Part shown: in pieces, positions 14,120-61,546 of the stretch
Numbering within the stretch: the stretch's first letter is position 1
Layout of the letters: every line of letters starts with the position of its first letter
Program-made: the position numbers and the translations under genes
Assembly (NCBI GenBank): GCA_002633005.1
Contig: NMRA01000186.1
Span: 351,479 to 415,478 of the forward strand
Source: Phoronis australis
Lineage: Eukaryota; Animalia; Phoronida
Length of the DNA stretch: 64,000 nt
Direction of reading: 5' to 3'
Notes under the pieces: generated by a model
Database searches by the model: none
The model's input: only the letters and a program-made list of their open reading frames with translations
What the model was told of the DNA's origin: nothing

Positions 14120-14292
14120 GAAATGTCGCACAATGTTAGCATTCCATGCGATGCTACTGTGAGCGATTACCTGCGGTTGATATGTGTTACGGTATATATC
14201 TTTACTTACAGAGGGGAAGGAAACAATACAGCGACTCGTGAGCAGCTGTCATTGGATCACGACGTCAGCTGACACTCCGAGTGGAAACAAGC

Positions 14293-22374: not shown

Positions 22375-22382
22375 AAGAAATG

Positions 22383-25300
22383 TGACATTTTCAAAAAATA
22401 TATATATGACTAAAAATATTCCCAGACTCTTGATTGGTTTGCCAGTCCACTTGAAGCCACAAAGTGGTTCAGAACAATCTTTTTCTCAACCTAAATATAA
22501 CCCTTCACATTTCTTAATATTCAGCTGGAGACCAGAGAGTAAACCAAAATGTTCTAAAAATTTGAGACAATACATGCCAGAATTTTTTTCAGGAAGAAAT
22601 AAGGTAGTGTCATCTGCGTACTGGAGAATTTTAACTTCAGTTTTTTCAACACTTATACCTTTAATTAAATTACTCTTTCGTATATAATTGGCCATAACTT
22701 CAACAACTAGGCAAATAATGGACCTGACAATGAATCACCCTGTCTTACACCCCTTTCTAAACGAAAATAATCTGTTGTAAAACCATTATTGACAACACAA
22801 CCTCTTGGTTTGTTATAGATTATTTCTACCCATCGTGTTAAACCCTGTCCAAAATTAAAAGCCTTCAAAGCTTGAAAAATAAACTACCATTTCATTGTAT
22901 CATACGCCTTGCAAAAATCCAAAAATAAAATGTGTCCTTGACCATCAGTAATATTTGTATAAGAAATTATATCCTGAATGATACGAATATTGTATCCTAC
23001 ATATCGTCCTTTAACAGCTGTTTGACCTGGGTGAACCAGTTTTCCCATGATATTATTTATACAGGCTGTAAGAACTTTATACTTCGTGATCAATAGAGAC
23101 ATTGGACGTTAATTATCCAAGGACTGGAGCTCGAACTCATCTTTTGACTTGGGTAGGAGCGTTATTGCTCCTTGCCTCTGTGACGTAGATATTTCCCCCA
23201 CTGAAAAACTATATTCAAAAGCTTCAAGTAAAGAGTTTTGAACTTCATGCCAGAAACATTTATAAAATTCGTAAGTTAGCCCGTGATTTCCTGGAGACTT
23301 ATTGTTTTTACAAGTCTTTAAAACTTCATAAAATTCACCCTCTCTTAAAGGTTCATCCAGTTCTTCAAAATCACTGGGTGGTACATAGCTGGCGATATTA
23401 AAAAGATCTGGTATAGTGATGGTGTTTCCATTTGACGATCTGTGAAAACAGAGGAGTAATAATGAGTCAATTCTGAACTCTTATCAAGTGGCCATCATTA
23501 TTTTTAAGGATACTTATACACTTTTTAAAATTTCTTTTCTCCAATGAGGCAAAAACTTTTGGGCTAGTCTCCCCTTCCTCAATTACTTCTTAACATTTGT
23601 CCACCTACATGTACTCTATGATTTTGTATACGTTGCAAATTGGACTTGGCTCTTTCCAAATTCTGTACAATTCCATCATCAATTCTACCATCATTTAGTT
23701 CGTTTTCCTGTCAAGTTGTTGATAATTTCAATCAATTTCTCTTCCTCAGCATATTCAAATTTCATTGATCTTTTCGAGTATCTCATAGTATATTTCCTTA
23801 TTTTCATTTTAACCATTTCCCATTTGGTATGTTTATTACTTAGATAAACATACTCTTCAACACAGGTATTTATAATTATTTTCAAGTTAGTTACATAATC
23901 TTCATCTTCGAAAAGACTAATATTAATTTTCCATAATCCAGGCCCTCTCGGTACAGAATCTTTAAGTGAGCAATGAAGTTTGACTACCGAGTGATCCGAA
24001 AAATTATAATCACTTTTAATGAAACAATCGAGATGATCTTTGAAGTTCTTTGAAACCAACCAATAGTCAACTTTGCTTTGTAATCTGTAGGAACTATTAT
24101 GCCATGTACATTGTTTTTTGCCTGGATTCTGAAATCTCCACATGTTAAATAGATGGAAAGACTCCGCAAAACCTTTAAGCTTGTCAATGACTGTTTGTTT
24201 ATCTCTAATATCTCTTATTCCTTGTTTATCAATTTTGCCTAATGGGCAATTAAAATCACCAGCACAAAAATATTATCGTTATTTACATATCTTTGGAAAG
24301 TATTATTTAATTTGTTCAAAAACATTAATTGAGATCTATTTTCATTTGGAAAATAAACGTCTATGAAAATATAGTTATGATCATCCACATCTGCGTCAAT
24401 GCACAAATAACGACCATCAGGATCTTCGATACATCTTTTAACTGTAACATTTAAGTTGTTGTTAAACATGATGGCAACACCCCTGCTGTGCTCTGACCCA
24501 TGAGCAGCAAAGATTCTACTTCCCCACTCATGTCCCCATTACTTAATGTTAGTTATTGTACTGTATCTTTCTTGTAAAAAGGCAATATCAACCCTCTTCT
24601 TCTTCAAAAAGAAAACAAATGCTGCCCTTTCAATTCATGATTTAAACCCCTGCAATTTAACGATACTAAGTTTAAGCTAATCATTGTCATCAATTGGGAA
24701 ACGACAAAACCTATCATTAGATAAACCCCTACAAAACCTTTCAACAAAAAATAAATGAACCGTGATCACGGGAATATAGAAAGCATTCACTCCGACAAAC
24801 ACACACCTACGAAACAACAAAAATATATATATAACTGAAAGAATTCAGGTAAATGTCGATCTGTCCGTCTTCGCCATCTGGCTAGCCACTTGTAGTCGCA
24901 AATTAAATATTTTCTGTATTCTTGATCCCCTTTATAGTTCCGTTTGTCAACTGTACATAGATACTGCCATCGCTGGACCATCTACTTTTGACTTTATCAT
25001 TCTTGAGTGCAGACTTGAGTAAATTATAGTTCAGCGATGTTAGGTCTTCTACAATATAATAGCCAGTATCTTTTAGAACCTTCTTCTGTTTAAACACATT
25101 TTCTCTAGTTTGATAAGAAATAAATTTCACAATCATCGGTCTCGGAGTCGTTGATTGGACAGAGTGTCTTGACACTCTATCTGTAGTTTTACGTTTTCCA
25201 ATTCGGTGCATACGGTCAGTCTCTGCAGGTTTAGATTTTACTTTAAGAGATTTTTCCAAGAACTCTGTCACTGTTTGAATACATACTTCAGATTCCTCTT

Positions 25301-25860
25301 CTTTCAAACCATAGATGCGTAGACTATTCCTTCTTGAATACTGCTCAAGAGAATTCACCTTTTCCTTCAAGACCTCGTTTTCCCTTTTAAGCTTGACCAG
25401 TTCTTCATTCAACTTCAAAACCTAATCCTTGATGATGAGTTTCACAGATTTTGCAATCCTCTCATCGAGTTTAGCAAATCTTTCCTATAACTGTTTTGCA
25501 TCTATCTTGACCAGCAAGGGTTATTTACACTGAGTGACTAACCTAGATTCCTTTCAGTCATCCATGGTGGTTTTGAATGGTGACCTTTCACCACCAACAG
25601 CAGGGTTCTAGTTCATATAGCAGTAATGTTGGTCAGTGAGTTGCCACTGAACACAGCTGTATCAGTCATAGGAGGACAAGCCCATTACAAACAGCAACTT
25701 TCTCTATGTGGTGAGAGTATTCTAAAACCTCAAAACAAGTTCATCAAAATCTCTGACACAAATTTCACCTCTCTGCAACTTTCTGCCTGCTCCTGTACTT
25801 TCGTTTGCAAAATATTTGATGTACTGTTGAGAGCAATTTTACACACCACTTGAGGAGCTG
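22383..25860 (-). mobile_element. L1/Tx1-clade LINE A, 5' part (ORF1 ~24903-25560; ORF2 from ~24690)
   Basis: ORF1 has LEQYSRRNSLRIYG, DRMHRIG, PRPMIVKF and YIVEDLT. ORF2 begins MISLNLVSLNCRG and has GRYL, SDHSVV, GPGLWKIN, LDFCKAYD and QYADDTT. The frame joins the 16317-17780 piece once LINE B is removed. Confidence 0.9.
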
Positions 25861-29159: not shown

Positions 29160-31530
29160 TCAAGAGCCGTCTCGATTAACCACGAGATAGCGTGGACGAG
29201 AGCTGGTCTTATCTCGAACACCATAGAGATAAACTTTATCACCAGTTGTAGCGTTGCTTGTGGGAGGAAGTCTAGCCATAAGAGTCTTAGATCTTAAGCT
29301 GGGTTCATGGCTTCTTTCACATTTGAGTTGCTGCTCCTCGATCAGGGTGAGGTCGGTGACGGGTATATAGTCACAGGTAAATTGGTCACGTTGGAATGGC
29401 ATCTCTCAGGCAGGTGGTCATTTTGAACGTAGCCGACAGTTAAGCTGTGCAACTGTGAGTGAAAGCTGCAAAGACGTCAAGTTGCCATGGACCACGTGTT
29501 CATGGAGTAACTCATCGGAAAGCTCTAAAATAGCCCTTTTTCAACGACTGGGTTGTGACTGGGGCTATTAACCCGGCAAAATTCAACAGTAATCCTATGT
29601 CGTTTATCGTCCTTCAATGCACTGAAACCGGAGAACCTGATCTGTGCGGATAACTGCAGGAGGGCTATCCAAACGACGAAGTTCTGAACATTTGAAAAAG
29701 ACAATCAATGTAGGAGGACACATTCCTGCAACACGAGGACCAATTGGCGATCACGTTTCATGACATCTGCAGCGAATGAAAGATAGGGGGAGGGTCAGAC
29801 GATTCTTGAGTGACCAAAGTCTTGGGGAATGTTTGAAGCGAGCAGCACTTGTTGCAAGATTTGGAAAATCTGCCACTGGAGTCCAAGTCGAGGGCGTAGA
29901 AGTAACGTTGGGTAACTAGCCTCAGCTGATTGGATGAGGGATGATCCAAGAGGAGGTGAAGAGCCATGAGTAGACCAACTAAGACAGAACCAGGAACAAA
30001 TATGCATTCGAAAATCGGAGCTAAGGGTGCTTTTCTGCGGACAACTAGTAAACCATCACTAGCACCCTTGACAATGTTTAGGTAACGCTTCACATCTCGA
30101 ACATCAGTCAGCTTATTACTGAGACACATACCTTGAGTAATAAGAGCGTGGGTACAGCGTAGGTCTGGGCACTCAGTTTGGATACTGTGCCGAGCATAAC
30201 GGGTATTTAACAAAATCCTCGACAACCAGATAAGATGTCTTCTGTGGATGAACGAAAGACCACACAATCTTTGGCAGATACCACGAAGGCGTATACCTGG
30301 CACGACATCTCTGAACACTCAATACTACGTCGGCTTCCAAAATCTGACACTATGTTGGCGACTCCTGAAACATGGCGAACAGTAGTTAGAAGCCGAGACA
30401 GAGCTGACAAAAAGTAGACACTTTAGTGTTCATAGAAAATTCACCTCTACACAAGCGATCAAAATCGGGTACACATGGCTTACTGTCAGTGAGGACTGAA
30501 GCACGATGTTTGGACTGGGTGAGCTATGGGTTGAAGTGTTGCAAAGCCACGGCAACGGCCAAAGCTTCAACCTCGCAAGGGAGCTAAAGTACTTGGCTGG
30601 ACTTACATGTACGCATGGCACTGAAGAAGAAATAAATCTTGGATTTCCTTCCCTAGTAACATATAGGGTATCTGCTATCCCTGAGTGCTTGGCATAGAAG
30701 TCAGTCACAATCCACAGGTTATCCACAGAATACAGTAGTGTGATGACCTTGTTAGACGAGAGTGCTTTCTGGGCGACAGAAAATGCACTGACTAACTCAT
30801 CAGACCATGTGAATGGACACTTGGAATCGCAGCATCATTCAGTGGAGACATATATTATAGAAAAAAATTGAAATATATATAGTAGGAGCAATGAGGGAAA
30901 ACCCTAGACAGAACCTTGAAGGCACCGATGAATGAACGCATACGACTCACGGCTGTAGGCTTATTGCACGTTGCAAGTGCACCGAAGCTACGATTGCTAG
31001 CCTAGGACAGTCGTGCGCTTGGGAGCAATGGCTGTTTCTGTAGGTGACACATGTAGACCAGACTTAGCAAGGACAGAAGGTACCCGTTCCCAATTGGTAA
31101 GTAGCTTAGATGGGTTCTTGCCACCACAGTACAACTTGCTTTCGATGCCTTGTTCGAGGAGATTACCTAGGACATGGCAGGTAAGCTCTTCCAATGCTGT
31201 TTCTGAGCATTCCCATAACACACCTGGCATAGACACGAATGGCATGGAAGGGGCTACCACGCTGCAGTACTTCATGGATTCACAAGACGAGGGAATTTGA
31301 TAAAAAGCACTCGTGAGGTCCGTTTTGGCTATAAATCGCCACAGAGCAATTTTGCGTATTACGGAATTGAAATTGGGCATGAGTGATGGTTGGGGTTTGG
31401 TTCATCTTCCAAACTCCGCAAAGGCAGTTACGAGTCGAAATTGACCGCTGGGCTTATTAATTACGAAGGATGGGTTCAGATATTCAATAAGTACATCCAC
31501 ATCATTGAGACGAACTAAGACACCGAATGC
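29160..31530 (-). mobile_element. Decayed Ty3/Gypsy LTR retrotransposon pol (RT-RNaseH-integrase)
   Basis: FIAKTDLTSAFYQIP (RT), LWIVTD and VRHVSGVANIVSDFGSR (RNase H), and HLLLDHPSSNQL...CNKCCS (integrase HHCC), followed by integrase core remnants. The domain order is RT-RH-IN. LTRs were not identified. Confidence 0.88.
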
Positions 31531-35300: not shown

Positions 35301-36006
35301 AACGCTCTGTTGACTCACTCTATTGCCACTGGTCATGAAATAGTCAACTCGGGTGTGACAATCCTTGATCAACATCATGCAGAGAGCTCACTCAACCGCA
35401 ACATTGAGGCATACAAAGCTAGTGCTGAGGTAGAAATTAGATTTTCAGTACTGTGATATGCACTCTGGTGTGAAGTACGGGAATATGGATTTGTCTCGCC
35501 TTCGTAAATATATAAGTTATTGAATCTGTGTATACAGATGGTAGGCCTATTGAGGGTTATCGAAGCGTCCTCACTATGGAGCACGACGTCTTGTTTTTGT
35601 TCAGATTATCGATAGAAATTTCGCATCTACGTAGTATTAAAGCGTGTTTTTGCATTTTATGCAAGTGTTGAAAGTTAATAACTTCACTTTATGTCGTTCA
35701 AAAGACCGATTAAAAGGCGCTAGAAAGTACTCTTTTATGTAAAAATCATCCTACGGTCTTTAATGCTAGACCGATCCCGCCACTGATTGGCGAGTTCCAT
35801 GCAGATGCCTCCCCACTCCTACTTTTTTCACGTTCATCTTGAACTAGAAATGTGCGAGTAGACAAAGCGGTGCCGTGGCCGTGAAACGATGAGATTAGCT
35901 GTGCGCGACGTTCGCTTGAAAAAAGCGTTGTATATTATACATGTTCCGTGTTTTCCTAAGCTGTTGCCCGGAGTAGGTTGAACTTTAATGTCCGTTGAAT
36001 TCAGTC

Positions 36007-36099
36007 AGAATTTCCCGTCTTAATGAAAAATTCCCATCTCACTGCGCGAAGGAGGAATGGCTTTAAATAGGTTCGTTTGCTTTGAAAATTCACACTTGC
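36007..36099 (+). promoter_or_regulatory. Core promoter of ZnF-coil gene 1: two kappaB-like motifs, TTTAAATAG box, TTCACACTTGC initiator-like motif
   Basis: AGAATTTCCC 36007-36016, AAAAATTCCC 36026-36035, TTTAAATAG 36062-36070 and TTCACACTTGC 36089-36099. The same order recurs upstream of genes 2 and 3. Confidence 0.6.
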
Positions 36100-36128
36100 A
36101 GGCCTACAGTACTTGACATACGATCGAC

Positions 36129-37099
36129 ATGGCAGAACTGTGCATAATTTGCCAAACAACATGTGCAGACGAACGAAGTTTGATGGAGCACTACATGCAA
36201 CAACACAAGTGCATCCCCAGCAGTAAGTAGATCACGTGGTAGCTCGCCGAGAATTTGAGGAAAGCTGTCCTCGCCTAAGATTCGTACATTATGACTGGCA
36301 TCTGCATTATGATGAAATTCGATTTTGCTTTAACATAAATTGTTGACTAAATAGTAGCTTTCATTAATTATTAAATATAAGTCTACACTAAAAAGTATCA
36401 ATCTTATGCAGTCAACTATAAGAGCTGCCGTTTATGCTGTCATTGCCCCACTTTTTCATACATGATGTGCATAATATCTCTTTACATGCAGTAAAATAGT
36501 TGGGACGTTGGCGTTTCCAAGTTCAACACATGAGAGCACATGTATACCAATTAGTTCAATGAAGTCTACCGATCGTGGGTAGATGACTACGAGCTCAAGT
36601 CCAGCATTAGGCACGTGCTATGAGGGGAACCGTTATATACGCACCACGTACTGATACATACGTATAAGTCTGTGTGCGTTGAGCTACAATTTAAGTATAG
36701 TACCCAAATACACAAACACCGGTGTATTTTACAATATCATGTATTATAATTACAGCGTACAATGACGCGCAGAAGATGCTGATGCTGCAGTTGCAACTGC
36801 AATTAGCACAAGAGAAAACGAAGCAGTTGCAAATTGAAAAAGACCACGAGTTACGCATGCAGGAACGAGAGCTGGCACATCAAGAAGAAATGCAGGCAGC
36901 AGAGAACCAACGACGCCGGGACGACCACAAAATGGAGATGATCAGAACGTACATGAAACCGAAAGTAACAGAAAGAACCACAGTGAAGGAAGGATGGTTC
37001 TCCACAACTAGGACGACCGATAGATCGGAGACAGTTCCCGACATTGCAAGTGTCCTTGAGAAATTCAACAACGGCGGAAGGCTCGCTCTAACTCAATGA
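36129..37099 (+). CDS. ZnF-coil family gene 1, join(36129..36222,36756..37099), 145 aa: C2H2 finger + 1 helical repeat + conserved C-terminal module
   Basis: Exon 1 encodes MAELCIICQTTCADERSLMEHYMQQHKCIPS (C-x2-C-x12-H-x4-H). Donor A|GTAAGT and acceptor TTACAG| form a phase-1 intron that joins in frame to YNDAQKML...EKTKQLQIEKDHELR...KPKVTERTTVKEGWFST...ETVPDI. Confidence 0.85.
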
Positions 37100-37559
37100 A
37101 TGTAAGAACACAATCAGTTTTAAAGCCTAACTTCAACGGAATTTTGTTATTTTAGATGTACTTGGCTAACCAGGTAGCAAAACCTTGGCAAAATAAGAAA
37201 ACGCAACTGTAAGCCTGTCAAATGATAAGTGAAGCTCATTTCGTGTCCTATTGCGTCACAACAACAAAAGACCGATAACAGCTGTATTTAATAGGGGTCT
37301 GGATAGAACGTCATTGCGCGCGGGTGTTTCTCGCAGTTGTGATTCTCACGGTGACGTAAGCAAAGCAAGTCAATACACCTAACAGTTCATTACATGTGAT
37401 AATTGATAATTTTTGGCACTAGTTGGCTCAGAGCGATGCTCTTAACATATTACAGGCACTCAGAAATTTACTGGTGTTATCTTTTAAGCTAGGCCTTAAG
37501 ACATGCCTTAATTTGAAACCAGCATTGCTTTCTGATTTAGCTAGCAGCAGTAATACATC

Positions 37560-40500
37560 AAATGAAAAAGAACAAAGAGCAGACAAAAATACCGTTGTTT
37601 CCATGACATACACAACTCAATTCATGGGTAGCATTTTGCATGTAAGGATGGTCGATCGAAACTTGAAAAAGTTGCCATAATGAAATGTTAAGGCGAAGTG
37701 AGTTAAAAACAAGCCAGATTTCCTGTGAATATGAATTTATTCATGTTCAGAACAAAATTCGCTGTTCTTAAGATTTTGATTACAACCGACTGACGTTGCG
37801 TGTGAGACACGTATTGAAACCATGGCCGTTAAAATACGCTTGATATTCTGCCATTTAGTGCTGGCTGCCAGCAAAGCGAAGAGGGTGAGTTTGATTCCGC
37901 GTTTAGCCGGCGCTGATCTCAGCAAACCATTTTTCTCACTGATACTGTTGCTTTGACACTTTGAATAAATTTAGAAGTCAGTATATTTAACACATTTAGA
38001 CACTACATTGTTTATCACGTACGGCAAGAGTACCGTTCATTCTGGTAGAAGAAAGCAATGTTAATACCTCCGCCGACAAGACGAAGGTCAGGTTCTGCTT
38101 TAGCCCAAAATGAAAAGGAAAACCATGTATTTTGGAAATTCCAGAAAAACCAATATTGATTTTTCGTGGAATGCGTAACCACAATCTTATTTCTTGCGTT
38201 TAATAATAGATCATTCATCCACGCCCTGCGTCATGGGATTTTTATCGGAGGTCATGTGAAACTTTTTCATACCTTTCAGACCGAATTAATTATTTATACA
38301 GGGAAGTTTTCAGACGTTTCAAACTCAAACAACCGTGAATGAACTTCGCTTGGTACAATAGCTTCACGAACCAATTCATTTCTGCGCTATAAACTCAAGG
38401 AGAAATAAAATATGTTGCTGGGTCACCAATATTTTTATTTGGTGAAAAGAAAGAAATTTCTCCATGTTCGTTGCTTTGTTGTACATTTCTAAGCACGAAA
38501 TGGCATCATGTACGGTAGACCTGAATCGCCAAGAGCTTTCGTAAGTGAGTTACCCGTTCCTCCGTAACATTCTCGAGATTTCACTATGACTATTTTTTAT
38601 TTTAAGACTTCTTCCAGTGACAGATTTAGGGATTCGGAAGTGCCTGGTAATTCGGAAGTGCCTGTGTTTAACGGGCACAATCCTGGCTAATACTCTGCCC
38701 TGGCCCCCCTAACTCAAAATCCTGGATCCGCTGCGGCGAGTCTTGTATTGTACATGTAGCTCCGGCGTCATTTGACCAATCTGTCTGCAGTACATCTTTT
38801 TTGAGTGCTAAAAAATTAACAATAATCGTTTTTTGGTTCCGACTTAATCATTCTAGAGTTGTCAGATAATTTTACAGACACTCTCACTTCACTTGTTAAA
38901 AGCGCAATGCTAGTCGCAGTTTTGTGACTGCATTTATTATTTAAAATGCCTATTAAATTCTCATTCAATCAGAACCAAAATGATGTAGACCAATTGACTG
39001 TTTTAAAAGGTTCATCTTGGTTTCTGGTCGTTCTTGCTTCCAAAAGCAATATTTTTTATGACAGGACGTGAAGCTAGACTTCCAAATCTGGGGCGATATT
39101 TATGACAGTTCAAAATGTGAAAATAGAACCCTTGTTTATACCAAAAGCTAGATTATTTTGTCCCACGTCAATGCCTGTGCGCTCTAAAACATGACTTATA
39201 TTTATCAGTCCGAAACAAGCAAAGATAGTGATCTTCAATCACACCTACCCACGTCCGTTAACCGAAACAGATACCACAATGTATTGCCAAAAAAACCCGT
39301 GGCAGGCCCGCCACACAATCGGTGCCGATAGATAAGAACTTACACAGTAGGATATAGGACAACCCCTGGAAGGCCAACTTCGATCTCGCGCTACTGAGGC
39401 TGCGCCGAGCACACGTGGAATTAATTTGCTTTCCTTTGTTCCAGTGCACGTGTTATTGCTTTGGAATTTATTATCACTACAACATTTCGCTACTCCGCCG
39501 TTTTTCAACCGAATTGCACGTATGATTGCATCAGAGGCGAAAGGCAAATGATTTAATTCATAAATAATTTCGTATACTTGACAAGTTTAAAAGTATTTTT
39601 GATGTGAAAACCAAGACTGTTTACCAAAATGAGAAAAACAACCGAATGCTCTAGATTGATTTACGCCAGGCGTTTGATATGATTCATAGCCGTTTATGGC
39701 AACCGCTAAAGTCATATTATGTTTGCCATGTAATTTCTATGATGTAAATTTCTACGAGTCATTGTCACAAGAAAGCATTCCAAAAACATGGGCGCACTCG
39801 ATATTGGACTTGCCAATGAGCCACTTTTCACTTTCCATAACTTTTCCATCTTGAACGTGAGTTGAAGACCAATAATGATGTCGGTGTTATTTGCAGATGA
39901 TCCGGTTGTATTCTGTGAGAATTGAATTGCAACGGCCGATAAAGAAAGTTAAAGTGTATTGCATAAAATGGAAGCTAGGCATCAACATGTCAAAAACCAG
40001 AATTGTGGTATTCAGAAGAGGACACTTACGTAATTATGAAAAATGGTTCATTAATAAAGAACAAATCATTGTTGAGGCTGTACCTATTTTGCTACTAAAG
40101 GTGTCTAGACAAAAACTCAATCCAATTTAGCTGATGAGGCTGGAAAAATCTTGTTTTTGTTGAAAAAGTATATGTGATAATTGGGAAGTGTTCCTGTAAA
40201 TGTTTGGTTGCAATTGTTTGATACAAAAATACGCCCTATAATTTAATAGTCGATATCGTGTCAACCACTTTGCTAATTACGCACTTGTATTTGTTACTTC
40301 CATACTTGTATATGGGCCGGAGGTCTGAATTCTGAAATAAATTGACTTTATCCACGCATCGTCTTTACTGTCGTCGGTTCCAGCGTTGTCCTCATTATCA
40401 GTAACTACATATCAGTAACTAAAAGATTATTACAAGTTCATGTACTATACAGATAAAAAAATCATCATTGTCTTCAGCACTGAGCAGCAGTTGTGTTTAT

Positions 40501-41165
40501 CGCTTACCAAACTCATATTTCATCTAAAGACTTAAATTGATTTGTTGGCCTGTTCGAAGGCCGGCAACTGCGGGCTTCCGAATTGCACATAAAATGAAAG
40601 GTTCCCTGTCAAAACAAAACTCACTAACTTCACAAATTTATGTCATGTATCAATGACCAATTGCTATTTTAGAAATGTCAAATCAGCATTTATTTGTCTA
40701 GTCCCAATGGTGAACAATACAAAAATAAATTTGTTTACCATTGTGGCATCTAGTTGAATAATCTTTGATCATAAGACTTAACAGCACTTGTCAACTTCAC
40801 ATCAAATCAATATGGTTTCAAGACATACACTCGCCATGAGTATATCCTAAGTTTGGTGAAAATCCGTGACTCACTTTTTCAGTAGTTCCCCAGAGCCCAC
40901 ATGGCAAATCCTGAAAACGATGGCCAGAAAAGCTGGAAAAACCAATAACTGAGCTGAACGCACTGACACCGGGCATAGTCCACTAACTGAAAACGACCAT
41001 TATGTAGAATACAATTCAAGGAAACGTTTTGTAGATATAATACACATGGGAGTAAAGTTAGCATGTTTGAGTTGAAACGCATATCTCAAGAAGACTTGCA
41101 AGATTCCAATTTCTCACAGTAAACCTACACAACAGTATACAGCCTAGGTTGCATTCCATACCAAG
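37560..41165 (+). repeat. Duplicated intergenic spacer, unit A
   Basis: Collinear blocks are shared with 42082-45330, 46130-47070, 51170-54330 and 58040-60390, for example CAAAATGAAAAGGAAAACC, GGGGCGATATTTATGACAGTTCAAA and TACCCACGTCCGTTAA. Confidence 0.88.
39870..40350 (+). mobile_element. CR1/L2-group LINE 3' fragment inside unit A
   Basis: LFADDPVVF, YCIKWKLGINMSKTRIVVFRRG and LQLFDTKIRPI, ending at AATAAA near 40336. Confidence 0.65.
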
Positions 41166-41196: not shown

Positions 41197-42008
41197 NNNN
41201 NNNNNNNNNNNNNNNNNNNNNNNNNNNNNNNNNNNNNNNNNNNNNNNNNNNNNNNNNNNNNNNNNNNNNNNNNNNNNNNNNNNNNNNNNNNNNNNNNNNN
41301 NNNNNNNNNNNNNNNNNNNNNNNNNNNNNNNNNNNNNNNNNNNNNNNNNNNNNNNNNNNNNNNNNNNNNNNNNNNNNNNNNNNNNNNNNNNNNNNNNNNN
41401 NNNNNNNNNNNNNNNNNNNNNNNNNNNNNNNNNNNNNNNNNNNNNNNNNNNNNNNNNNNNNNNNNNNNNNNNNNNNNNNNNNNNNNNNNNNNNNNNNNNN
41501 NNNNNNNNNNNNNNNNNNNNNNNNNNNNNNNNNNNNNNNNNNNNNNNNNNNNNNNNNNNNNNNNNNNNNNNNNNNNNNNNNNNNNNNNNNNNNNNNNNNN
41601 NNNNNNNNNNNNNNNNNNNNNNNNNNNNNNNNNNNNNNNNNNNNNNNNNNNNNNNNNNNNNNNNNNNNNNNNNNNNNNNNNNNNNNNNNNNNNNNNNNNN
41701 NNNNNNNNNNNNNNNNNNNNNNNNNNNNNNNNNNNNNNNNNNNNNNNNNNNNNNNNNNNNNNNNNNNNNNNNNNNNNNNNNNNNNNNNNNNNNNNNNNNN
41801 NNNNNNNNNNNNNNNNNNNNNNNNNNNNNNNNNNNNNNNNNNNNNNNNNNNNNNNNNNNNNNNNNNNNNNNNNNNNNNNNNNNNNNNNNNNNNNNNNNNN
41901 NNNNNNNNNNNNNNNNNNNNNNNNNNNNNNNNNNNNNNNNNNNNNNNNNNNNNNNNNNNNNNNNNNNNNNNNNNNNNNNNNNNNNNNNNNNNNNNNNNNN
42001 NNNNNNNN
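41197..42008. other. Assembly gap (812 N) flanked by (GA)n microsatellite
   Basis: Run of n; GA-rich sequence at 41165-41196 and perfect (AG)n at 42009-42080. Confidence 0.99.
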
Positions 42009-42083: not shown

Positions 42084-45000
42084 ACACAATTCATGGGTAG
42101 GATGGTAAATCGAAGCTTGAAAAAGATGCCATAATGAAATGTTAAGGTGAAGTGAGCTAAAAACAAACCAAATTTCCTCTCAAGATCAATAATTTTTTGC
42201 TCAGAACAAAATTTACTGTTTTTGAGATTTTGTTAAAAATCACCGATTTCCTGTACCATTTAGTGCGGACTAGGGTTTATGACCGCCAGCAAAGCTGAGG
42301 TACATAGATTTCGCGTTTGGTTGGCTCTTATTTCAGCAAACTATTTTTCTCACTGGTAATGTTGCTTTAACACTTGAATTAATTTAGAAGTCAGTGTATT
42401 TAACCCATTTCGACCCACTATAGTTTATCACATACATGTACGGCAAGAGTGCCGTTCATTGGTAGTTTTCTAGCAATGTTAATACCTCCGCGGACAAGAA
42501 AATTTTCAGAGTGCTTTACCCCAAAATGAAAAGGAAAACCATCTTGCAACAATGAACAATAGGCTAGTCACATTTTGGAAGCTCCAGAAAAACAACACTG
42601 ATTCGCGGAATAGACCAATCATCCATGTACCGCGTGGGATTTTTGTCTACTTGGTTTTCCCGTGGTCATGTAAAAACCCTTACAAACCGGATTAGTTCTT
42701 TATATTGTCAAGTTGCCACAGCAAATGATTCAAGCTCAACAACCGTGAATGAACCTGGTATAATGGGATCACGACCCAATTTATTTCTGCTCTATAAACA
42801 GAAAGACAAATATGTAGCTGTAATCGATATTCTTACTGGGTAAAACGAAATTTCTCCATAACGGACGTTTTGTTGTAAATTTTGTTTTTTTAGCTTTTAT
42901 TGTAAGTTCCCTTCGTACAGACGAAATGGAATCATATAAGGCAGAGCTCGTAAGGGCTGTCATAGGTGATTAATCCGTTCTTCGGTACGACCTACTGTTC
43001 TCGAGCTTTTACGATTACTTTTATATTTTATGACTTCTCGTGCCGTAGCTCCGGCGTCATTTGACTAATCTGTCAGAAATTTGCCACAAGAATAGATCTT
43101 GTTGGGTGCTACGAAAAGTTATCAGTAGCCGATTTTCCGACTTAACCGTTCTAGAGTTATTCGATTATTTGACCTACACTCTCAGGTGTTAAAAACGCAA
43201 TGTGAGTCGCGGTTTTGTGACTGCATTTATTATTTCCGTCAAATGCCTATTAAATTCTCATTCAGTGTCAAAATCATGTAGACGACTTTACAGTTGTAAA
43301 TTCAGGTTCGTCTTGGTTTCTAGCAGTTCTTGCTTTCAAAAGCAACCATCTTTTAATGTCGGGACGTGAAGATGGACTTCCAAATCTGGGGCGATATTTA
43401 TGACAGTTCAAATTGTGAAAACAGAACCCATGTTTAAACCAAGAGCTAAATTATTGTGTCCCACGCCAATGCCCGTGTGCTCTCAAAACATTACCTATTT
43501 TACAGTTCCAAACAAGTAAAGATAATGATCTCCCATCACATTTACCCACGTCCGTTAACCTGCACAGATAACCCAATGCATTGCCAACGAACTCCATGGT
43601 AGGCCTATCACAAAATCGGTGCCCATAGCGAGGTATAGGACACTACCCCTAGAAGCGCAACTAAGATCTCGCGTGTCTGGGGTTGCACCGAGCACGCGTG
43701 CCCCTTATCAATTCTTGGTGTATGATTCCACCAGAAGCAAGAGACAATGAGCTTATAAGTCAATTATTATTATTTCGTATACTTGGCAGGTTCAAAGTAT
43801 GTTTTAATCTGAAAACTAAGATTGTTAACAAAATGGGAAAATAACGGGGTGTAATAGCGAAGTAAAAAACTAAATGAACCAGAGAGGTTATAAACGACTA
43901 GTTAAGCCAACTGGGAAACGATTTCAACGATTCAAATCATTTCTACCCAATAAAGACAAAGATTTTAGAATAAGAGTCCCTCACAATTGCTATGAAGAAT
44001 TTAGTCAGACATTCAGGCAAAATTATACATCTTTATACATTAACTAGAACACTGGTGCCCTTTTATACAGTGACATACTTCAGTAAAAATTCAGGACTCA
44101 TTGAAATTTACAAAAATGTGATCAAATAATTACTCCAGCTATTTATCCAAAATTTGCAGATAAAGGTTTTCTGATAGATGAAAACATGGGCAAATATCTA
44201 CTATGTAGCTTTGAATTGTACTGTGGATAGCTCGTTACATTGGTTGCAGTGTAGGACTTTCCACAGAAGTCTGATGTATGATTCAGCGGGAACTGTGCTG
44301 TGGTGCTCTAGATTGATTTACGCAGGGCGTTTGATACGGTGAATAGCGATTCTTATACGTTTATGGCAACCACTAATGTTCCCCATGTTGCGCATCTGTA
44401 AAAACTCAGTGCCCGGTCATATTATGTTTACCATGTAATTCCTATGGTTTAAATTTCTAACAGTTAATTTTCACGAGAAAGCATAACAGAAAACATGGAC
44501 GTATTCGATATGGGACTTGCCAATAAGCCCCTTTTCACGTTCTATAAGGTTTCCATGCAACGTCTTTACTGTCATCGTTGCCAGACGCGTCCTCACAATT
44601 ATGCATGTATACAAATGTCATCATAGTCCTGAGCAGTGATCGGCTATTGTGTTAATCGCTTAACAAACTCAAATTTCATCTAAATATTTGAATTCATTAT
44701 CAGCCACTTCGAAGGCCGGCCACTGGACCTTCCAAATTACACATTAAATGAAAGGTTTCGTGTCAAAACAAAACTCACACATTGATGACATGTATTGATG
44801 ACCAATTGATACAGTGTATTTCAGAAATGTCAAATCTTCATTGAAATGACGAACCTCAATGCAAAAATGATTTTTTTTTATCTTTGTTGGTGATGAGTAA
44901 TACACGATCGTAAGAAATAGAAGAACTTTACGTTAAGTCAATGTGGTTTCAAGATCTAGACTCGCCTTATGTGTATCCTAAAAGATTTGTGAAAATCTGT

Positions 45001-45330
45001 GACTCACTTTTTCAGTAGTTCCCCAGAGCCCACATGGCAAATCATGAAAACGATTTCCAGAAAATCTTGGCAAATCATGAAAACGATTGCCAGAAAATCT
45101 GGAAAAACCATTAACTGAGCTGAGCGTACTGACACAGGCATTGTCCAGTAACTAAAGACGGCCATTACAGTATGTAGCAGGCATTGGACGGTAAGGTTAC
45201 AAGACATTTGAAAGTAAAGTTAGCATGTTTGGCTTGAAATGCATATCTCAGGAAGACTTGAAAGATCCCAATTTCTCACAGGAAACCTGAACAACACCAC
45301 GCAGCCTCGACTGCGTTCCATTTTTTAACC
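42082..45330 (+). repeat. Duplicated intergenic spacer, unit B
   Basis: Starts CAATTCATGGGTAG...AAAAGATGCCATAATGAAATGTTAAGG like 37618-37693. Ends GACTCACTTTTTCAGTAGTTCCCCAGAGCCCACATGGCAAATC...CAATTTCTCACAG like 40868-41119. Confidence 0.88.
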
Positions 45331-45419
45331 ACATCTTGGAACACCAAGAAATAACAAGAACAACAGACTGAGAGAGAAAGCAAGTCGTGATTTAATTAAA
45401 CATCAACATTCAATATTTA

Positions 45420-46110
45420 CGTTTAAATATGAATTAACGTTTATTCATACTCGAGGCCATCGGCCCACGGTACTTACATATCAAACACAACAATAAAATA
45501 CAGTGAATACGCATACGCATGTGTAGTAGTTTCAATCCTCAAGTAGTTTTTGTTTTAAAACAGAAGTGTGGTATACAATTTGATTAGGTTTCTAAGCACA
45601 CTGGGATCAGAAATTTCCATTAATCTTAACGTAGAAAATATATCTGAAACTAAATAAGGCGATCCAGATCCTCCCAAGGATAATATTGTTTCATGAATTG
45701 AAGAATATAAATCGGAAAATAAAACAACAAGAATGGATCAACTGAAATCCACCATTAGTCGGATTGCTCCAATGTATTCAAGGTAACATTCTACTTCTCT
45801 AATCATCATAACATGGACATATTCAGATAAAGTGATATTCATTCTCAATAAATTTTTAACCAAGGTTCTGTTTACATAAAGAAGAACATATTCGGAGGAC
45901 TTCATCGATTGGTAAGCTTCGACCTACCTCGACCATCAGTCTCTGATTTGAACGACGGAATCTTGCAGCGAGGTAACTCAAAAGAAAAATATGTTTCAAG
46001 AGTAAACGTCGTTTTGAAAAGTGGATATGTACACACTTTCAAGTTATTTTGCACGTCTGTGTTCCATTCTTGCAAAAAGCAATCATTGACTCTTCGTTCA
46101 AGGGTACTTA
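45420..46110 (-). mobile_element. Probable CR1/L2-group LINE 3' end separating units B and C
   Basis: On the minus strand, GGGCCGATGGCCTCGAGTATGAATAAAC resembles the 3' end at 40313-40341. The coding remnants are very degenerate. Confidence 0.4.
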
Positions 46111-46129
46111 GGAATAATTTTTTTCATCC

Positions 46130-47070
46130 GACGCCTTGTTCAAAGCAGCAAACTGTATTTTTTCTCACTGATAATGTCGAGTTAGTATACTTAAACAAGT
46201 TTTTAAATTCCACCACATTCAGAAAATTTAACGAAAAAATATCCAATAGCCTAAACTGCATATTATTACACGCGACCTATTTCTATCAACGTTAATACCT
46301 CTGCGGACAACAAAAAGGTCACACATTCTTTTACCCCAAAATGAAAAAGAAAGCCATCTTGCAAGAGTGAGGAGGCTAGTCACAATTTTGAAATTCCAGA
46401 AAAAGCAATGCTGATACTTGGAAAGTGTAACCACAATCATAAAGGTTTTATAGCCTTTCAGTTTGTGTTTTTCAATACATGTTGATTAATCACCCATGCA
46501 CCGCGTCATGGGATTTTTTCGATTTGTTTTTCCCCCATGTAATGTAAAAAACCCTTACAAACTTTCCAGTTAATTAACGACCTCAATAGGTACCACGTGT
46601 CCATGACTCAATTCACCTCAAGGAAAATAGATATTGTTGAGTGCAACAAAAGGTTAACAGCAACCGTTGTCTGGTTCCGACATAACAGTTCTCGAGTTTA
46701 CTGGATTGCTTGTTAAACGCGGCATGTGAGTCGCGGTTTCGTGGATACATTTGCTATTCAAAATACCTATTAAATTCTCCATCAATGCCAAAATGGTTAA
46801 GACCACTTCACCGTTATAAATCAGGCTAATCTTTGTTTCTAATCGTTCTTGCTTCCAAATGCAATCACATGGTACATGTGGGTCGTAAAGCTGAACTTCC
46901 GAACCTGGGGCGATATTTATGACAGTTCAAAACTTGAAAATAGAACCCATGTTTATAGCTGAGCTAGAACAGTGCGTCCCATGTCAATGCTTCTGAACTC
47001 TAAAACATGACCTATATCCATGCATCCGATACAAATAGAGACCTCCCATCACGTCTGTTAATCTGAACAG
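46130..47070 (+). repeat. Duplicated intergenic spacer, unit C (partial, cut by a LINE)
   Basis: Shares AAATTCC(A/G)CCACATTCAGAAAATTT with unit D (51624), plus CCCAAAATGAAAAAGAAAG and GGGGCGATATTTATGACAGTTCAAA. Confidence 0.82.
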
Positions 47071-50000
47071 TTTTTTGACATTGATGGTAATAATAATAAC
47101 ACAGTGCAAAGACAGAAATTTCCACTGACACATCACACACACACGCACACATTTCACCGAAAACTCAAGTTCACAAACCAATAACACCAAATGTACTTTT
47201 CTCATCTGCATTTCTTATTAAAGAGGAAAAAACACACCATCTTTGGAGAAATATGTCTCCTAATCCATTTTTACCTTAATTATGTTTATCGAATGCTTTC
47301 TGCAGTATATAATTATCTGCTTTTTGGCCAGAAGAACGATCAAATTCAACAGTTCATTCGCTTTTCCAGTTTTACCAAATATAACAATCTGAAATCTATC
47401 GAAATATCGACGTTTTTTGAGTGAATATAATATTCTTTTCCAAAAACGGCCTAACAAAAAGTGCAACTCCAAAATAATAAATGTTCTAAAGTTTCAGGTT
47501 CATTCCTACAAAAGGTACATCGGTCAGTTGGAGAAATACCAATTCGCATTAAAAAGTTATTCTCATTTGAAACCATCTGATTATAACATGTGAAGTACAA
47601 AAAACAGAAGTTTGAAAACATAACTTCCATTCGCTCACTGATCTTGCAAACCAAAAGTATTTTCCCATTTTCTAATCCTTGTGGTTTTTTAAAAAAGTTG
47701 CCAAAATTTATGATATATATCACGAGTACCTTTCGAATTTTTCGCCAAAATTTGCCAGAGTTATGTGATAACTGTTTGAGACACTTTTGAAATTGTCTGC
47801 AAAACTGTGCTGGTACCTACCACTATAAAATTTTATGCATCCAGGTATATTTCGCTATTCAAACGTTTCTTAATAATGACATGTCACGTTTGGTAAAGTT
47901 GAATGCCTGTGCTTTTACTAGAAGGATTTCAATCTATAGAGATGTTCTGACACCCACCATAGGCAGAGCACCAATACCTGCCATGGAGGGAATTGCGTAC
48001 ATATCATGGTCATGCCTGTAAGAACGCTGTTCACCGTGGGTCTATCTAAATAACGAAATAAACAATGCTTGAGTCGCTCCCACTCGTGAAGCCGCATCTG
48101 TGGGTACACCGGTTTAAATAGTGGAAACTGCCAAACTGGGTCCATCTACATATATACACATTTGGAAATGCAGCGATGGGTCCACCTATTGCAGTGACAC
48201 CAGTATGTATTTACATAGGTGGTGGATCCATTTGTATAAACATGAATGGATCCACTAGAGAGGGTTATTTAAATTTATAAAAGTAGACCCTTCATGATGG
48301 GTTTAGTTATATTTTATAGGCTGACCCACCTGGATGGGTCCATCTATATAAATATAACTGGACTCGTCATGATGGCTACAGTTATATTTTTGTTGATTGA
48401 CCCGCCGGGATGAGTCCATCTATATAAATATAACTACCCATCATGACGTGTCATTATATTTATACAGGCAGACTCATCCCGTCTTTGGTGTACTCAGTTA
48501 GAAACAGACTTGGCTGATAAACCTTTACCGACAGGTGCGTCCACTTATAATTATATATAACGTGAAAACACATATATTTATGTGGGTGTCCCCATTTTTT
48601 GTCCATGAAATGCAAAATTTACTAAATAAGAAAAGTTCAAATTAAATACGAAGCTGTTTTGTATGGCAAAAAAAATCCGTTTTCGTCAAGTAAATCGCCT
48701 AATAATTTCCCATTCTTTTCATTCTAAGTAGGGTTAAATATTGGTTTTCCTCCAATTTGAACCTTTGTGTTATGCTATAAATGAATGGACAGGATTCTGT
48801 CATCTTTTTGACCTCGTTTAATATCCACCCAAACTCAAATGTTGAACCAAACACATCCTTCCAAAACGGATTCCTTGTGGACTGGGCAACCATTTTATAA
48901 TAGTTTCCTCCATTGAGCATTTTTTCAATGCCAAATTGACTTGAATTCCATAAAATATCTATCCAGACCGAATTATTTTGTCCATTTATAATATTTTTAA
49001 CCACGTTTCTTAAAGAACTTTTTAAATAAAGGAAACTACATGAACGATGTTGAGGCCGCAAATTTTATAATTCTGAACCATTGTCTTACAATTAATTTCA
49101 TCTTTTTTTACTCCAAATAAACTGAAAAAAAAAAACATTTTCTCCAGGTGTTTGATAACATTGTCCTGTGATGATGCGATGTGTAAGCTCAAGGTCCAAT
49201 TTGAACAAGTCAGACGCCATTTTGAATGACGCAAAGCTGTGAGTTTTCAATTAACATTTTTTCCTTTCACAAAAAATGTATCCAAACCCAAGCAACGTAA
49301 GAAAATTAAACAGAAAATCCCAAGACAATGAATCTAATGCTTTTTCAAAATCCATTATTGTCACAAAACCGGGAAGTTTACGCGAATCCGTATAATGCAA
49401 AATGTCAAAAAGATTTCTGGTGTTCTCATCAATAAATCGCCCAGATAAAAAACCTGTCTAGAAGAATTAATTTTTCAAGAATTTTTTCAGTCTTTGTTCT
49501 AAACACGATGACAAAAATTTGTAGTTTATATTTAACAAGGAAATTTGACGCCAATTTTTAAAAAAATCTGTGTGAGTACTGGGTTTTGACAGAACTTTAA
49601 TTACCCCTTGCAGTTGTGAAGCTGGGGAGTATTCACTTCAAAACTAAAGTTAAAAGACTTAAAAAGAAAGGCGATAATTCCTTTCAAAAGTATTTATAAA
49701 ATTCAACAGTAAAACCGTCAATTCCTGGATTTTTGTTATTTTTCATTGTTTTCAATGCAATTTCTAATTCTTGCGGATCAATATCTGCACCTAAACTTGC
49801 TCGATCAACTTCTTTTACTTTTTGAAACTTTGAATTTCCACCATATCCTTGATATTCCTAATTCCACATGCGTTGTCTCTCTACAAGCATATCGTTTTTC
49901 GTAAAAAGATGTTAATTCAATTAAATTTCTTTTTGATTTGTCAAAGTTTCATCCATTTTATCTTTAATAGCTTAAAAAATTCACGACATCGGCGTTTGGC

Positions 50001-53300: not shown

Positions 53301-54560
53301 ACTCATATTATGTATTTCACGTTATTTCTATGGTGTAAAATTCAACGAGTCATTTTGCCATGGGACTTGACAATGAGCCCCTTTCCACTTTTCATAAGTT
53401 TTCCAAGCACTGCATTTACTGTCATCGTTGCCAAGGTGGTTATCAGTATCAGTAAGTGAGAAATTCTTCAGATGCATGTACACTAAAGATAAAATTCATC
53501 ATTCTCTTCAGTAGTGATCGACAATTGCGTTAATCTCTTACGAAAGCTAACTCTCGTCTAAAAATTTGGATTGATTTGCCAGCCTGTTGGAAAGCCGATC
53601 ACTGGGGCTTTCCCAATTGCGCATAAAATGAAAGGTTTGATGTCTGAACAAAACCCACCGATTTTACGGAGTTATGACGTGAATTCATGACCAATTTTAA
53701 TTTTTGAAATGCCAAATCTAAATTTTGCTGTTGAGTCCAACGCGCTACACTTCTGCCTTTAATGAAAGGGTGAGGGGTTGTAATCAAGGTTGTAATTTTA
53801 GTACTAACTGGAACTAAACGAATTGATACAGTGATAACGTTTACAGTGCAAATAGTGTCTTAATAACCCCTTAATAACTTTCGTCTTTAAAAATCCTATA
53901 CTACAAGCACTGACAACAAAAACGATATTTTACCTCACTCCTCAATTTCCCATTAACGATCGTTGGTTTTAAATGCGCTTCATACCTGGTTTCTTCACTT
54001 TGCTTTTAGTACTCCAGTCTATTTTTTGTTTCCTGTTGTGTGGCAACATGTTTTGTGGCAGATTTTCATCCTCAGGAAAACATAGAAGTCACCTTTCGCT
54101 CACCGACCCACCTCATCTCATTGATTTGATTTCCCAGACTTTTGGTTTTAGCTTATTAAGTCATCCATATTTAAAAACCAAAAACCATACCTATGCTGTT
54201 CTTTCCAAATGAATTCCTTCATGTTTATTTTTAACGAAAATTATTGGTGTCTGCATTTTGAAATTTCTCCATTACGAGATGATTACTACAGATTGGGGCC
54301 GGTAATTACATATTGGGTCTTGCTTGCACTAGACAATGCGGTCGTCACAACTGTGGGCGATTCTGGCACCGCGCCCCGGCACTGATTCTCAGGTGAAAGC
54401 CGCTCAGAACAACGTTGAAAGAGCAGCGGTGAAAATTTCACGTTTTTATTTAGAAGTGCTTGTTTTCTTTGTAAGCGAATCAAATTTCACGGCATTTAGT
54501 AGAAAAAATCGTTGCCAGTTTCGTATTTACCCATGCCGTTGCTGTTACTAGAGAGTGCTT

Positions 54561-54643
54561 TGGCCTTTGACCTTCATAGTGTTAGTTGGAATTTCCCATC
54601 GGTCCTTAAATAGATTTCTTTTCTTAGGATATTTCACACTTGC
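54561..54643 (+). promoter_or_regulatory. Core promoter of gene 2: DR1-type element, consensus kappaB site, TTAAATAG box, initiator-like motif
   Basis: TGGCCT-T-TGACCT 54561-54573, GGAATTTCCC 54588-54597 (reverse complement GGGAAATTCC), TTAAATAG 54606-54613 and TTCACACTTGC 54633-54643. Confidence 0.7.
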
Positions 54644-54664
54644 CTTGTGAGCCTTCTGATCAAG

Positions 54665-55587
54665 ATGGAGAAAAAATGCCTAGCATGTGGACAAACCTTT
54701 GAAAACCTACAAACATGGACTGAACACTGTAAAGAAACACACGGTGAGTGTATTTCTAGCAGTAAGTACTAAAGTTGAGGCTCATCGAGAACTTGCGGAA
54801 AGCGATCTTCGGCCTAAAATTGTGCATAGCGACTGGCATGCATTACCATGAAATTCACGTTTCTTTTAATATAAGTTACTGACTAAAAGTAGCTTTCAAT
54901 TCCTTAATTATCAAATATAAGCCTGCACTAAAGTACAGTGTACCAGTCCCAAGTTATGCAGTCAACGAAAAGAGCGTACAGTGTACGAGCCTGCGTGCGT
55001 TCATAAAGACAAATGTTGAGCTATACGTGTGTATATTAGTCAAACGCACAAACGCCAGTATAATTTACAATATCAAATTTTCGATTGCAGGGTTAAATGA
55101 CATGGTTCTTTTAATGCAAATGGAGATGCAAATGCAAATGCACAAGGAGGAGGAGAAAACCAAACAGTTGCAAATGGAGAATGATCACGAGTACCGCATG
55201 CAGGTGGAAACGAAGGCGGAAGAACAGAAAACCAAAAAGTTCCAATTTGAGAAAGAACGCGAGTACAATATGCAGATGCAACAGCAGCAGGAAAAAGAGG
55301 CAACCAGACAGTTAGAAATTAACAAAGAACACGAGTACCGCATTCTCCAAGCAAACCAGGAACATGACGTAAAAATGAAGGCAGAAGCGAACCGACGACA
55401 TATGATGGACATCCAAAATGACCTCTATCAATCCTATTTACGACCAAAAAAAGTAACAAGAACCATGGAGAACAGAGGTTGGCTCTCTACAGAAGTGAAG
55501 ACCGAAACATCGGAAGAACTTCCCGACATTAGGGGTCTCATTGCAATTGGCGGGTTCAGCAAGGGTAATTTGGCCATTACTCAGTGA
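54665..55587 (+). CDS. ZnF-coil family gene 2, join(54665..54761,55091..55587), 197 aa: C2H2 finger + 3 x 24-aa repeats + C-terminal module
   Basis: Exon 1 encodes MEKKCLACGQTFENLQTWTEHCKETHGECISS. A GTAAGT donor and TTGCAG acceptor (phase 1) join it in frame with LNDMVLLMQ...RPKKVTRTMENRGWLST...EELPDI. AATAAA at 55684-55689. Confidence 0.88.
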
Positions 55588-60681: not shown

Positions 60682-60702
60682 CTTGTGAGCCTTCTGATCA
60701 AG

Positions 60703-61546
60703 ATGGAAAAAAAATGCCTAGTATGTGGACAAACCTTTGAAAACCTACAAACATGGACTGAACACTGTAAAGAAACACACGGTGAGTGTATTTCTAGCAG
60801 TAAGTACTTAAGTTGAGGCTCATCGAGAACTTGCGGAAAGCGATCTTCTGCCTAAAATCGTGCATAGCGACTGGCATGCATTACCATGAAATTCGTTTTT
60901 ATTTTCATATAAGTTGCTGACTAAAAGTAGCTTTCAAATAGAGCGTACGAGCCTGCGTGCGTCCATAAATACAAATGTTGAGCTATACTGTAGGTGTGTA
61001 TATTAATCAAGCGCACAAACGCCGGTTTAATTTAATAACAAATTTTCGATTACAGGGTTTGATGACGTGTTTCTTTTAATGCAAATGGAGATGCAAAGGC
61101 AAATGAAGCAGGAAGAAGAGAAAACCAAACAGTTGGAAATTGAGAAAGAAGACGAGTTCCGCATGAAGATGCAAATGAAACAGGAAGAAGAGAAAACCAA
61201 ACAGTTGGAAATTGAGAAAGAATACGAGTACCGCATGCTGAGGCAAATGAAGTGGGAAGAAAAGAAAACCAAACAGTTGCAAAATGAGAAAGAATACGAG
61301 TTCCGCATGCATAAAAGAAAACTGGCACTTGCAGAAAAAATGAAGGCAGAAGAGAACCAACGACACCTTATGGACATCAAAGAGGAAATAATTAAACCCT
61401 ATTTACAACCAAGAAAAATAGAAATAACCACGGAGAGCAGAGGTTTGTTCACTACAGACGTGAAGACCGAAACCAGAGAAATACATCCCGACATTGCGAG
61501 TGTCTATAAGAAGTTCAACATCGCGGGTTCTTTGCCAATTACTTAG
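60703..61546 (+). CDS. ZnF-coil family gene 3, join(60703..60799,61056..61546), 195 aa: C2H2 finger + 3 x 24-aa repeats + C-terminal module
   Basis: Exon 1 encodes MEKKCLVCGQTFENLQTWTEHCKETHGECISS. A GTAAGT donor and TTACAG acceptor (phase 1) join it in frame with FDDVFLLMQ...QPRKIEITTESRGLFTT...EIHPDI. Confidence 0.88.

Follow-up and report, generated by a model that had tools for sequence, protein, structure and literature searches.

Why should a short exon, predicted to encode a zinc finger, have diverged further between tandem paralogues than the intron that follows it? The question arises in 64,000 nucleotides of the phoronid Phoronis australis (contig NMRA01000186.1; this whole stretch is hereafter the window), where a first-pass annotation attributed the pattern to diversifying selection on the finger surface around fixed metal ligands, or alternatively to a constrained element in the intron. 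The window is animal-type DNA (GC 33–45%, spliced genes, LINE- and LTR-like fragments).

Self-BLAST and tblastn recovered three paralogues arranged in tandem on the + strand, namely genes 1 (36129), 2 (54665) and 3 (60703) (Table 1), and no copies beyond these three were found by tblastn inside the window. All three have two exons, and splicing is visible in RNA reads (two sets of four runs each were mapped, using about one-fifth of every raw-read run), and when spliced at the RNA-supported sites they yield intact frames of 145, 191 and 189 aa, respectively. Self-BLAST also showed that a repeated spacer unit of 3–4 kb stands between the three genes. Two more copies of this unit (42099–47069) have no gene between them, which could reflect gene loss or partial duplication, and an assembly gap (N) between GA repeats in mid-cluster (41198–42008) could hide further gene copies. 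Directly behind the gene 1 stop lies a repeat (37120–37330) that occurs on both strands, in many transcripts and in all three raw-read RNA runs, while at 48277–48481 a short tandem unit forms a 38-nt inverted repeat without a spacer (48406–48481).

Table 1. Features of the three-gene cluster, in positions of the window; X5, X6 and X8 are sequencing runs.
Feature	Position	Strand	Remarks
Gene 1 exon 1, coding part	36129..36222	+	94 nt, phase 1; C2H2-like finger plus 5 extra residues; RNA depth 65–88 (run X8)
Gene 1 donor-shift segment	36207..36222	+	Coding in gene 1; counterpart is the first intron bases in genes 2 and 3
Gene 1 intron	36223..36755	+	533 nt, GT..AG; 77% identity to gene 2 over the 5' half; devoid of RNA depth; Rfam search negative
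Gene 1 exon 2 (coding)	36756..37099	+	Predicted to form a long helix (one 24-residue repeat), a hairpin of beta type with a G-W-F tip and a short helix
Duplicated spacer unit behind gene 1	37559..41159	.	Copies at 42099–45321, 46180–47069, 51180–53718 and 58055–60387; 74–86% identity; non-coding background
Likely gene-conversion tract, genes 2 and 3	54546..54845	.	Promoter, exon 1 and intron start; 7 of 300 aligned sites differ
Gene 2 exon 1, coding part	54665..54743	+	79 nt; probable donor GTGAGT at 54744; a further donor at 54762 goes unused
Gene 2 exon 2 (coding)	55091..55587	+	Three 24-residue repeats plus hairpin module; branch dN/dS ~7.5
Gene 3 exon 1, coding part	60703..60781	+	79 nt; donor GTGAGT at 60782 used (64 reads in X8, 2 reads in X6, X5 contigs)
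Gene 3 exon 2 (coding)	61056..61546	+	Three 24-residue repeats plus hairpin module

Elsewhere in the window, an uninterrupted frame of 966 codons (11348–14248, − strand) resembles a single-exon LRR-Ig receptor-like gene: it carries about 25 leucine-rich repeats together with an Ig-like domain, and its tail is hydrophobic. Part of this frame, used as a query, returned no match at E ≤ 1e-10. A second frame (1286–2224, − strand) carries a von Willebrand A domain (E 2e-6). Mobile elements include a MITE-like element with 72-nt terminal inverted repeats that are 92% identical (2338–3453) and, at 16452–25421 and 29758–31401, broken frames on both strands that by eye resemble L1/Tx1-type LINEs and LTR-type pol.

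The extent of the finger exon needed one correction. In gene 1 the joint 36222>36756 (GT..AG) is covered by 80 reads with 36 starts in run X8, and by one contig of run X5, which may be RNA. The upstream GT donor is missing from gene 1 (a 3-nt gap), and the donor used sits 18 nt further downstream, within an 11-mer that is identical in the alignment of all three genes; RNA reads gave no sign that gene 3 uses its own downstream donor (60800). For gene 2 we infer use of the donor at 54744, because reads and an X5 contig bearing gene 2 letters map onto the gene 3 exon, and the joints listed include none at the downstream donor. Since gene 1 splices 18 nt downstream, the first bases of what had been annotated as intron are coding in this gene: its coding exon has 94 nt, not 78, and the 16 nt past codon 26 are intronic only in genes 2 and 3. 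In the alignment of this segment 11 of the 16 nt are identical, and all five differences are transitions. A change of this kind, in which one intron boundary differs in frame from paralogue to paralogue and falls on a GT close by, resembles a splice-donor shift or intron sliding (compare PMC2891723). Here, however, it is the donor alone that moves (by 18 nt), and genes 2 and 3 carry both sites.

The putative finger has the same ligand spacing in all three genes (C5-x2-C8-x12-H21-x4-H26), which fits the pattern C-x2-4-C-x12-H-x3-5-H and is that of C2H2 families such as Pfam zf-met, zf-C2H2_2, zf-C2H2_4, zf-LYAR and others. In a Pfam scan, the one homology search made with this exon, all scores nevertheless stayed below the curated cut-offs, the best being 18.8 bits against 20.7 (zf-LYAR, gene 2), with gene 1 at 16.2 bits against 21.2 for zf-met. 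The hydrophobic core of C2H2 fingers typically consists of F three residues after the second Cys and L three before the first His. At these core positions F12 and W18 stand in genes 2 and 3, whereas gene 1 has L18 and, at the usual Phe position, C12. Each spliced frame contains a single finger and no linker, so we rejected a tandem-finger transcription factor.

Exon 2, modelled from an alignment of the three sequences (pLDDT 84, pTM 0.40), is predicted to form a helix (residues 2–66), a hairpin (69–92) whose tip reads G-W-F, G-W-L or G-L-F, and a further helix (96–104); a four-copy complex model reached a median of 0.26 (mark 0.32). The 24-residue repeat occurs once in gene 1 and three times each in genes 2 and 3. 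Searches for relatives of exon 2 returned nothing usable: none of 2104 candidates matched gene 3 exon 2 at E ≤ 0.01 (lengths 89–284), the C-terminal part of gene 1 had no candidate (lengths 62–198), and three matches of gene 1 exon 2 among 1.84 billion representatives (E 8e-7 to 7e-4) were all to long tandem-repeat sequences and were set aside as repeat artefacts. Nor was there a match to the sequences of solved structures at E ≤ 1, to the PDB or viral libraries with Foldseek at E ≤ 0.001, or for the locus in 359 viral stretches and 599 metagenome contigs. The best atlas scores (0.77 and 0.78) were below noise, and a 192-aa atlas cluster, most commonly from Mollusca (0.75), is a lead only. With VIA-align the matches were generic coiled coils, reaching Z 6.7 at most, and the hairpin module, whose model has a pLDDT of 66, scored no higher than Z 2.6 against anything, a result that does not by itself imply a new fold. 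In a literature search on lineage-specific zinc-finger/coiled-coil families in marine invertebrates no paper matched five of the six terms, which is no proof of absence; the family is apparently undescribed. Because the frames start directly with the finger and have no signal peptide by inspection, the proteins are likely to be intracellular.

The divergence of gene 1 exon 1 from genes 2 and 3 exceeds that of non-coding DNA. Aligned without gaps, genes 1 and 2 share 43 of 78 nt and seven of 26 residues (36129–36206 versus 54665–54742), exactly as first reported; the common residues are M1, C5, C8, T11, E20, H21 and H26, and the differences fall at 10, 15 and 10 of the 26 first, second and third codon positions, the second being highest. 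Genes 1 and 3 share 45 of 78 nt and again seven of 26 residues. The intron motifs quoted in the first-pass annotation are all present in the gene 1/2 alignment, and the piece it described as alignable (36229–36365 versus 54768–54900) is indeed identical at 101 of 132 aligned sites (76.5%), with four gaps. Without its ATG the exon is identical at 40 of 75 sites, against 238 of 318 over the intron as far as it aligns (Fisher p=0.0004). The contrast weakens (p=0.03) when the comparison is restricted to the remaining non-coding parts, namely upstream DNA, 3' intron end and 3' UTR (198 of 293). Gapped alignment does not cause it, because in simulations with indels at the exon's distance (K 0.6–0.7) the intron piece reached 76.5% identity in at most two of 300 runs, whereas at K 0.3, to which its identity roughly corresponds, it did so in 52%. 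At K 0.4 a simulated neutral exon shows an identity of 43/78 or less with p 0.001; at K 0.45 and K 0.5 the corresponding values are 0.008 and 0.027.

How strong the excess is depends on the neutral distance chosen. Intron identity (0.77) falls inside the background of the flanks (0.74–0.86), and the 10 duplicated non-coding blocks measured are 74–91% identical. Yet the 5' half of the intron (159 of 206, 77%) is more alike than the other non-coding parts (198 of 293, 68%; p=0.02), and for gene 1 against genes 2 and 3 exon 2 gives a dS of 0.4–0.6 in seven of eight fits and of 0.9 in one model, against 0.31 for the intron. We therefore place the neutral distance at ~0.3–0.5, with the intron piece at the low end. 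The intron may understate the age of the genes, since its 5' half is less diverged and gene conversion between genes 2 and 3 is likely in that segment.

The proposal of diversifying selection on the finger was upheld in part. On the one hand, the exon is over-diverged, most of all at second positions, with non-coding DNA as the clock its dN/K is 2.2–3.0 (p 0.0003–0.005), and positive selection does occur in the family, in exon 2. On the other hand, the finger's own dN/dS (0.32–0.93 in eight fits of four codon models) never differs from 1, and site models (M1a/M2a) across the three genes were not significant (p 0.25 and 0.37). The finger's own dS scatters from 0.7 to 3.1, against an intron K of ~0.3; NG86 gives dN 0.62 and dS 1.08 on 14.6 synonymous sites. 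Because of this high dS, and because three of the six codons with an unchanged residue differ silently, an older exon with dN/dS ~1 fits as well: its likelihood is slightly better than that of an exon of the same age with dN/dS 3 (lnL −335.8 versus −337.5, with equal numbers of parameters). With exon-2 dS as the clock, the ratio is 1.3–1.6 for all 25 finger codons (p 0.19–0.44), and only when the four ligands are set apart does it rise, to 2.2–2.6 for the remaining 21 codons (p 0.018–0.049). These non-ligand codons also outpace exon 2 in the same comparison (p 0.001–0.04), although on their own synonymous sites dN/dS is 1.1–1.5 and not significant; throughout, the tests of gene 1 against gene 2 and of gene 1 against gene 3 are not independent. 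Between genes 2 and 3 the finger is identical at 76 of 78 nt, inside the likely conversion tract. Since it is near-invariant both there and in another sample, any selection on it would belong to the past, an episode to which we give an even chance or slightly better. Overall, the evidence for positive selection on the finger is no more than suggestive.

The clear signal of selection lies outside the region first highlighted, in exon 2 of gene 2 compared with gene 3. Here 73 of 150 residues are identical, codons changed at a single base include 57 non-synonymous and 6 synonymous changes, and differences number 45, 36 and 24 at the three codon positions (bootstrap P(dN ≤ dS)=0.006). Maximum-likelihood dN/dS is 2.7–3.1 in all four models (p 0.001–0.005, or ~0.01–0.03 when corrected for the seven regions tested), 2.9–3.4 with the repeats left out (p 0.01–0.05) and 4.5–4.8 in the last 44 aligned codons (p 0.007–0.018). 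When gene 1 is included to give three taxa (95 codons), it is gene 2 that carries the significant excess of replacements, with a branch dN/dS of 7.5 (p=0.001), the branches of gene 3 (1.6) and gene 1 (0.7) not differing from 1. GC-biased conversion found no support as a cause, there being no significant GC bias (28 versus 42, p=0.12). The more recent pair is that of genes 2 and 3, whose flanks differ by 10–21% per 250 sites; greater age as the full cause of their exon-2 divergence was rejected, because the exon's own dS (0.11–0.15) resembles these flanks. Within gene 3, 72-nt repeats at 61091–61310 are 89% alike and nearer to one another than to those of gene 2, a sign of repeat turnover within the gene.

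At the other end of these two genes the picture is the reverse. From 54546 to 54845 gene 2 differs from gene 3 at only seven of 300 sites, non-coding parts included (binomial p 1e-9 against 12%), which is likely to reflect gene conversion across the promoter, the finger and the start of the intron.

The genes appear to be constrained at present rather than decaying, because the differences in a gene-1-like contig of run X5, from another sample, are mostly silent. This contig, which may be allelic to gene 1, stem from a close paralogue or belong to a related or cryptic species, differs from gene 1 at 24 letters; among the differences listed 14 are coding (11 silent, 3 replacement), and the rest are in UTRs or unlisted. 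Its exon 1 has three differences in 109 nt, the listed one being silent. The replacement to silent ratio of 3:11 contrasts with the one that separates the finger paralogues, 27:8 (Fisher p 0.0007), and would still do so if five unlisted differences were all replacements (p 0.017). Expression is variable: among samples of one study, depth over gene 1 exon 1 is 65–88 in X8 and 0 in both X6 and X7. Another X5 record (record 9; 60689–60779 plus 61063–61473) is a further transcript of the gene-2/3 type, the third of its kind, in which exon 2 starts differently; it has 83 differences in ~411 nt and a gene-2-like tail, and comes either from a paralogue beyond the three or from an allele that has diverged strongly; its sequence was absent among eight listed pieces of the DNA run X1.

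We think it somewhat better than an even bet that positive selection came in bursts after each duplication, and that this is why the coding parts outpaced an intron left to drift. The alternative offered at the outset, that the first 130–200 nt of the intron are kept by a constrained element or functional RNA, found no support and now seems quite improbable. Its 5' half is, as noted, slightly more conserved, and the 11-mer at the downstream donor is identical in all three genes although use of this donor was not seen in genes 2 and 3. However, Rfam gave no match at E ≤ 1 over 35500–37500, and the consensus fold, from three sequences only, has a covariation term of +0.29 with two-sided changes in two of 33 pairs. 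Conserved sites do not cluster in blocks (the longest run is 11, against 12.8 in shuffles; runs p 0.08), 18 of the 31 changes between the gene 1 and gene 2 pieces are transitions, with four gaps, identity is in line with that of the flanks, and the intron has no depth in the four RNA or RNA-like runs mapped (in which small RNAs may be lost). Nor do we see more than a slight chance that the contrast stems from small numbers and post-hoc choice, in which case 25 codons would have been chosen from among several segments for their high divergence and set against a gap-optimised intron alignment. There are only ~14.6 synonymous sites, bootstrap ranges of pN (0.32–0.57) and pS (0.30–0.87) overlap, and the contrast with other non-coding DNA is uncorrected; but the indel simulation excludes alignment bias as the cause, and p 0.0002–0.001 at K 0.35–0.4 survives correction for about seven segments.

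The most serious rival, which we would credit with roughly a quarter of the weight, is that the finger was merely relaxed (dN/dS ~1 outside the ligands), that the 5' intron was homogenised by old conversion or is under the mild constraint common in first introns, that the true age is K ≥ 0.45–0.6 and that selection was real only in gene 2 exon 2. The conserved 5' half of the intron, the exon-2 dS above that of the intron, the finger's own dS of at least 0.7 with dN/dS ~1 and the likely conversion tract between genes 2 and 3 over the same segment all fit this reading. Yet even at K 0.45–0.5 the simulated neutral exon, with no residue fixed, seldom falls as low as 43/78; exon identity lies below that of the other non-coding parts as well; both the upstream DNA and the intron, on either side of the exon, are more identical than it is; and the mostly silent differences of the X5 contig fit relaxed constraint badly.

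If bursts of selection did follow the duplications, the history would run as follows. After the first duplication, which separated gene 1 from the ancestor of genes 2 and 3, the finger surface would have been remodelled around fixed zinc ligands and the splice donor would have moved by 18 nt. After the second, exon 2 of gene 2 would have been remodelled while conversion kept the promoters and fingers of genes 2 and 3 alike, and following both events purifying selection would have returned.

The proposed product would join a C2H2-like finger to a helix predicted to form a coiled coil and to a module predicted to be a beta-hairpin. Adaptors with a single finger and a coiled coil include NEMO, optineurin and DZIP1; here too a finger is joined to a long helix, with no sequence match to these adaptors. 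From this architecture, the on/off expression and the selection signal we infer, tentatively and as the less probable side of the matter, an intracellular adaptor in host-parasite or other genetic conflict that is switched on in some tissues or states only, whose helix would oligomerise and space two variable binding modules, the finger and the hairpin. A bolder and still more doubtful version would see undescribed, lineage-restricted intracellular defence adaptors of invertebrates that diversify module by module in an arms race: the first duplication would have rewritten the finger surface and the donor, the second the coiled coil and hairpin at dN/dS ~7, and conversion would have pinned the promoter and finger, leaving mix-and-match recognition modules.

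Exons outrunning introns usually mark genes in conflict (venom, immunity, reproduction), and two known systems offer comparison. In snake venom phospholipase A2 and three-finger genes (PMC7285919, PMC2474615, PMC6062510), introns are more conserved than coding exons, KA is near or above KS, rates are similar at the three codon positions, and structural cysteines are kept while the surface turns over. Our genes are alike in being tandem paralogues with an intron more conserved than a coding exon, and exon 2 of gene 2 versus gene 3 likewise has dN/dS above 1, whereas the finger exon on its own, imprecisely estimated synonymous sites gives 0.3–0.9. In contrast to the venom families, to which there is no sequence relation, the conserved residues are C2H2 ligands rather than disulfides, the proteins are likely to be intracellular, and only three copies are in view. 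The sea urchin SpTransformer (Sp185/333) immune genes are small, clustered two-exon genes with exon-2 repeats and strongly variable expression (PMC5491942). Our genes share this layout and variability, and a GA repeat lies in their cluster. Unlike in the sea urchin genes, exon 2 here is without a glycine-rich region, RGD or histidine-rich region, and exon 1 encodes a putative finger.

The family works like an accelerated multigene family and is assigned here to no named protein family. That introns can evolve more slowly than the exons beside them has long been known; what this cluster offers is a compact case in which duplication, conversion, a splice-donor shift and episodic selection occur together. 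Its occurrence in a small, expressed, apparently intracellular family, for which the searches gave no homologue or fold match, suggests an as yet undescribed recognition system in an invertebrate.
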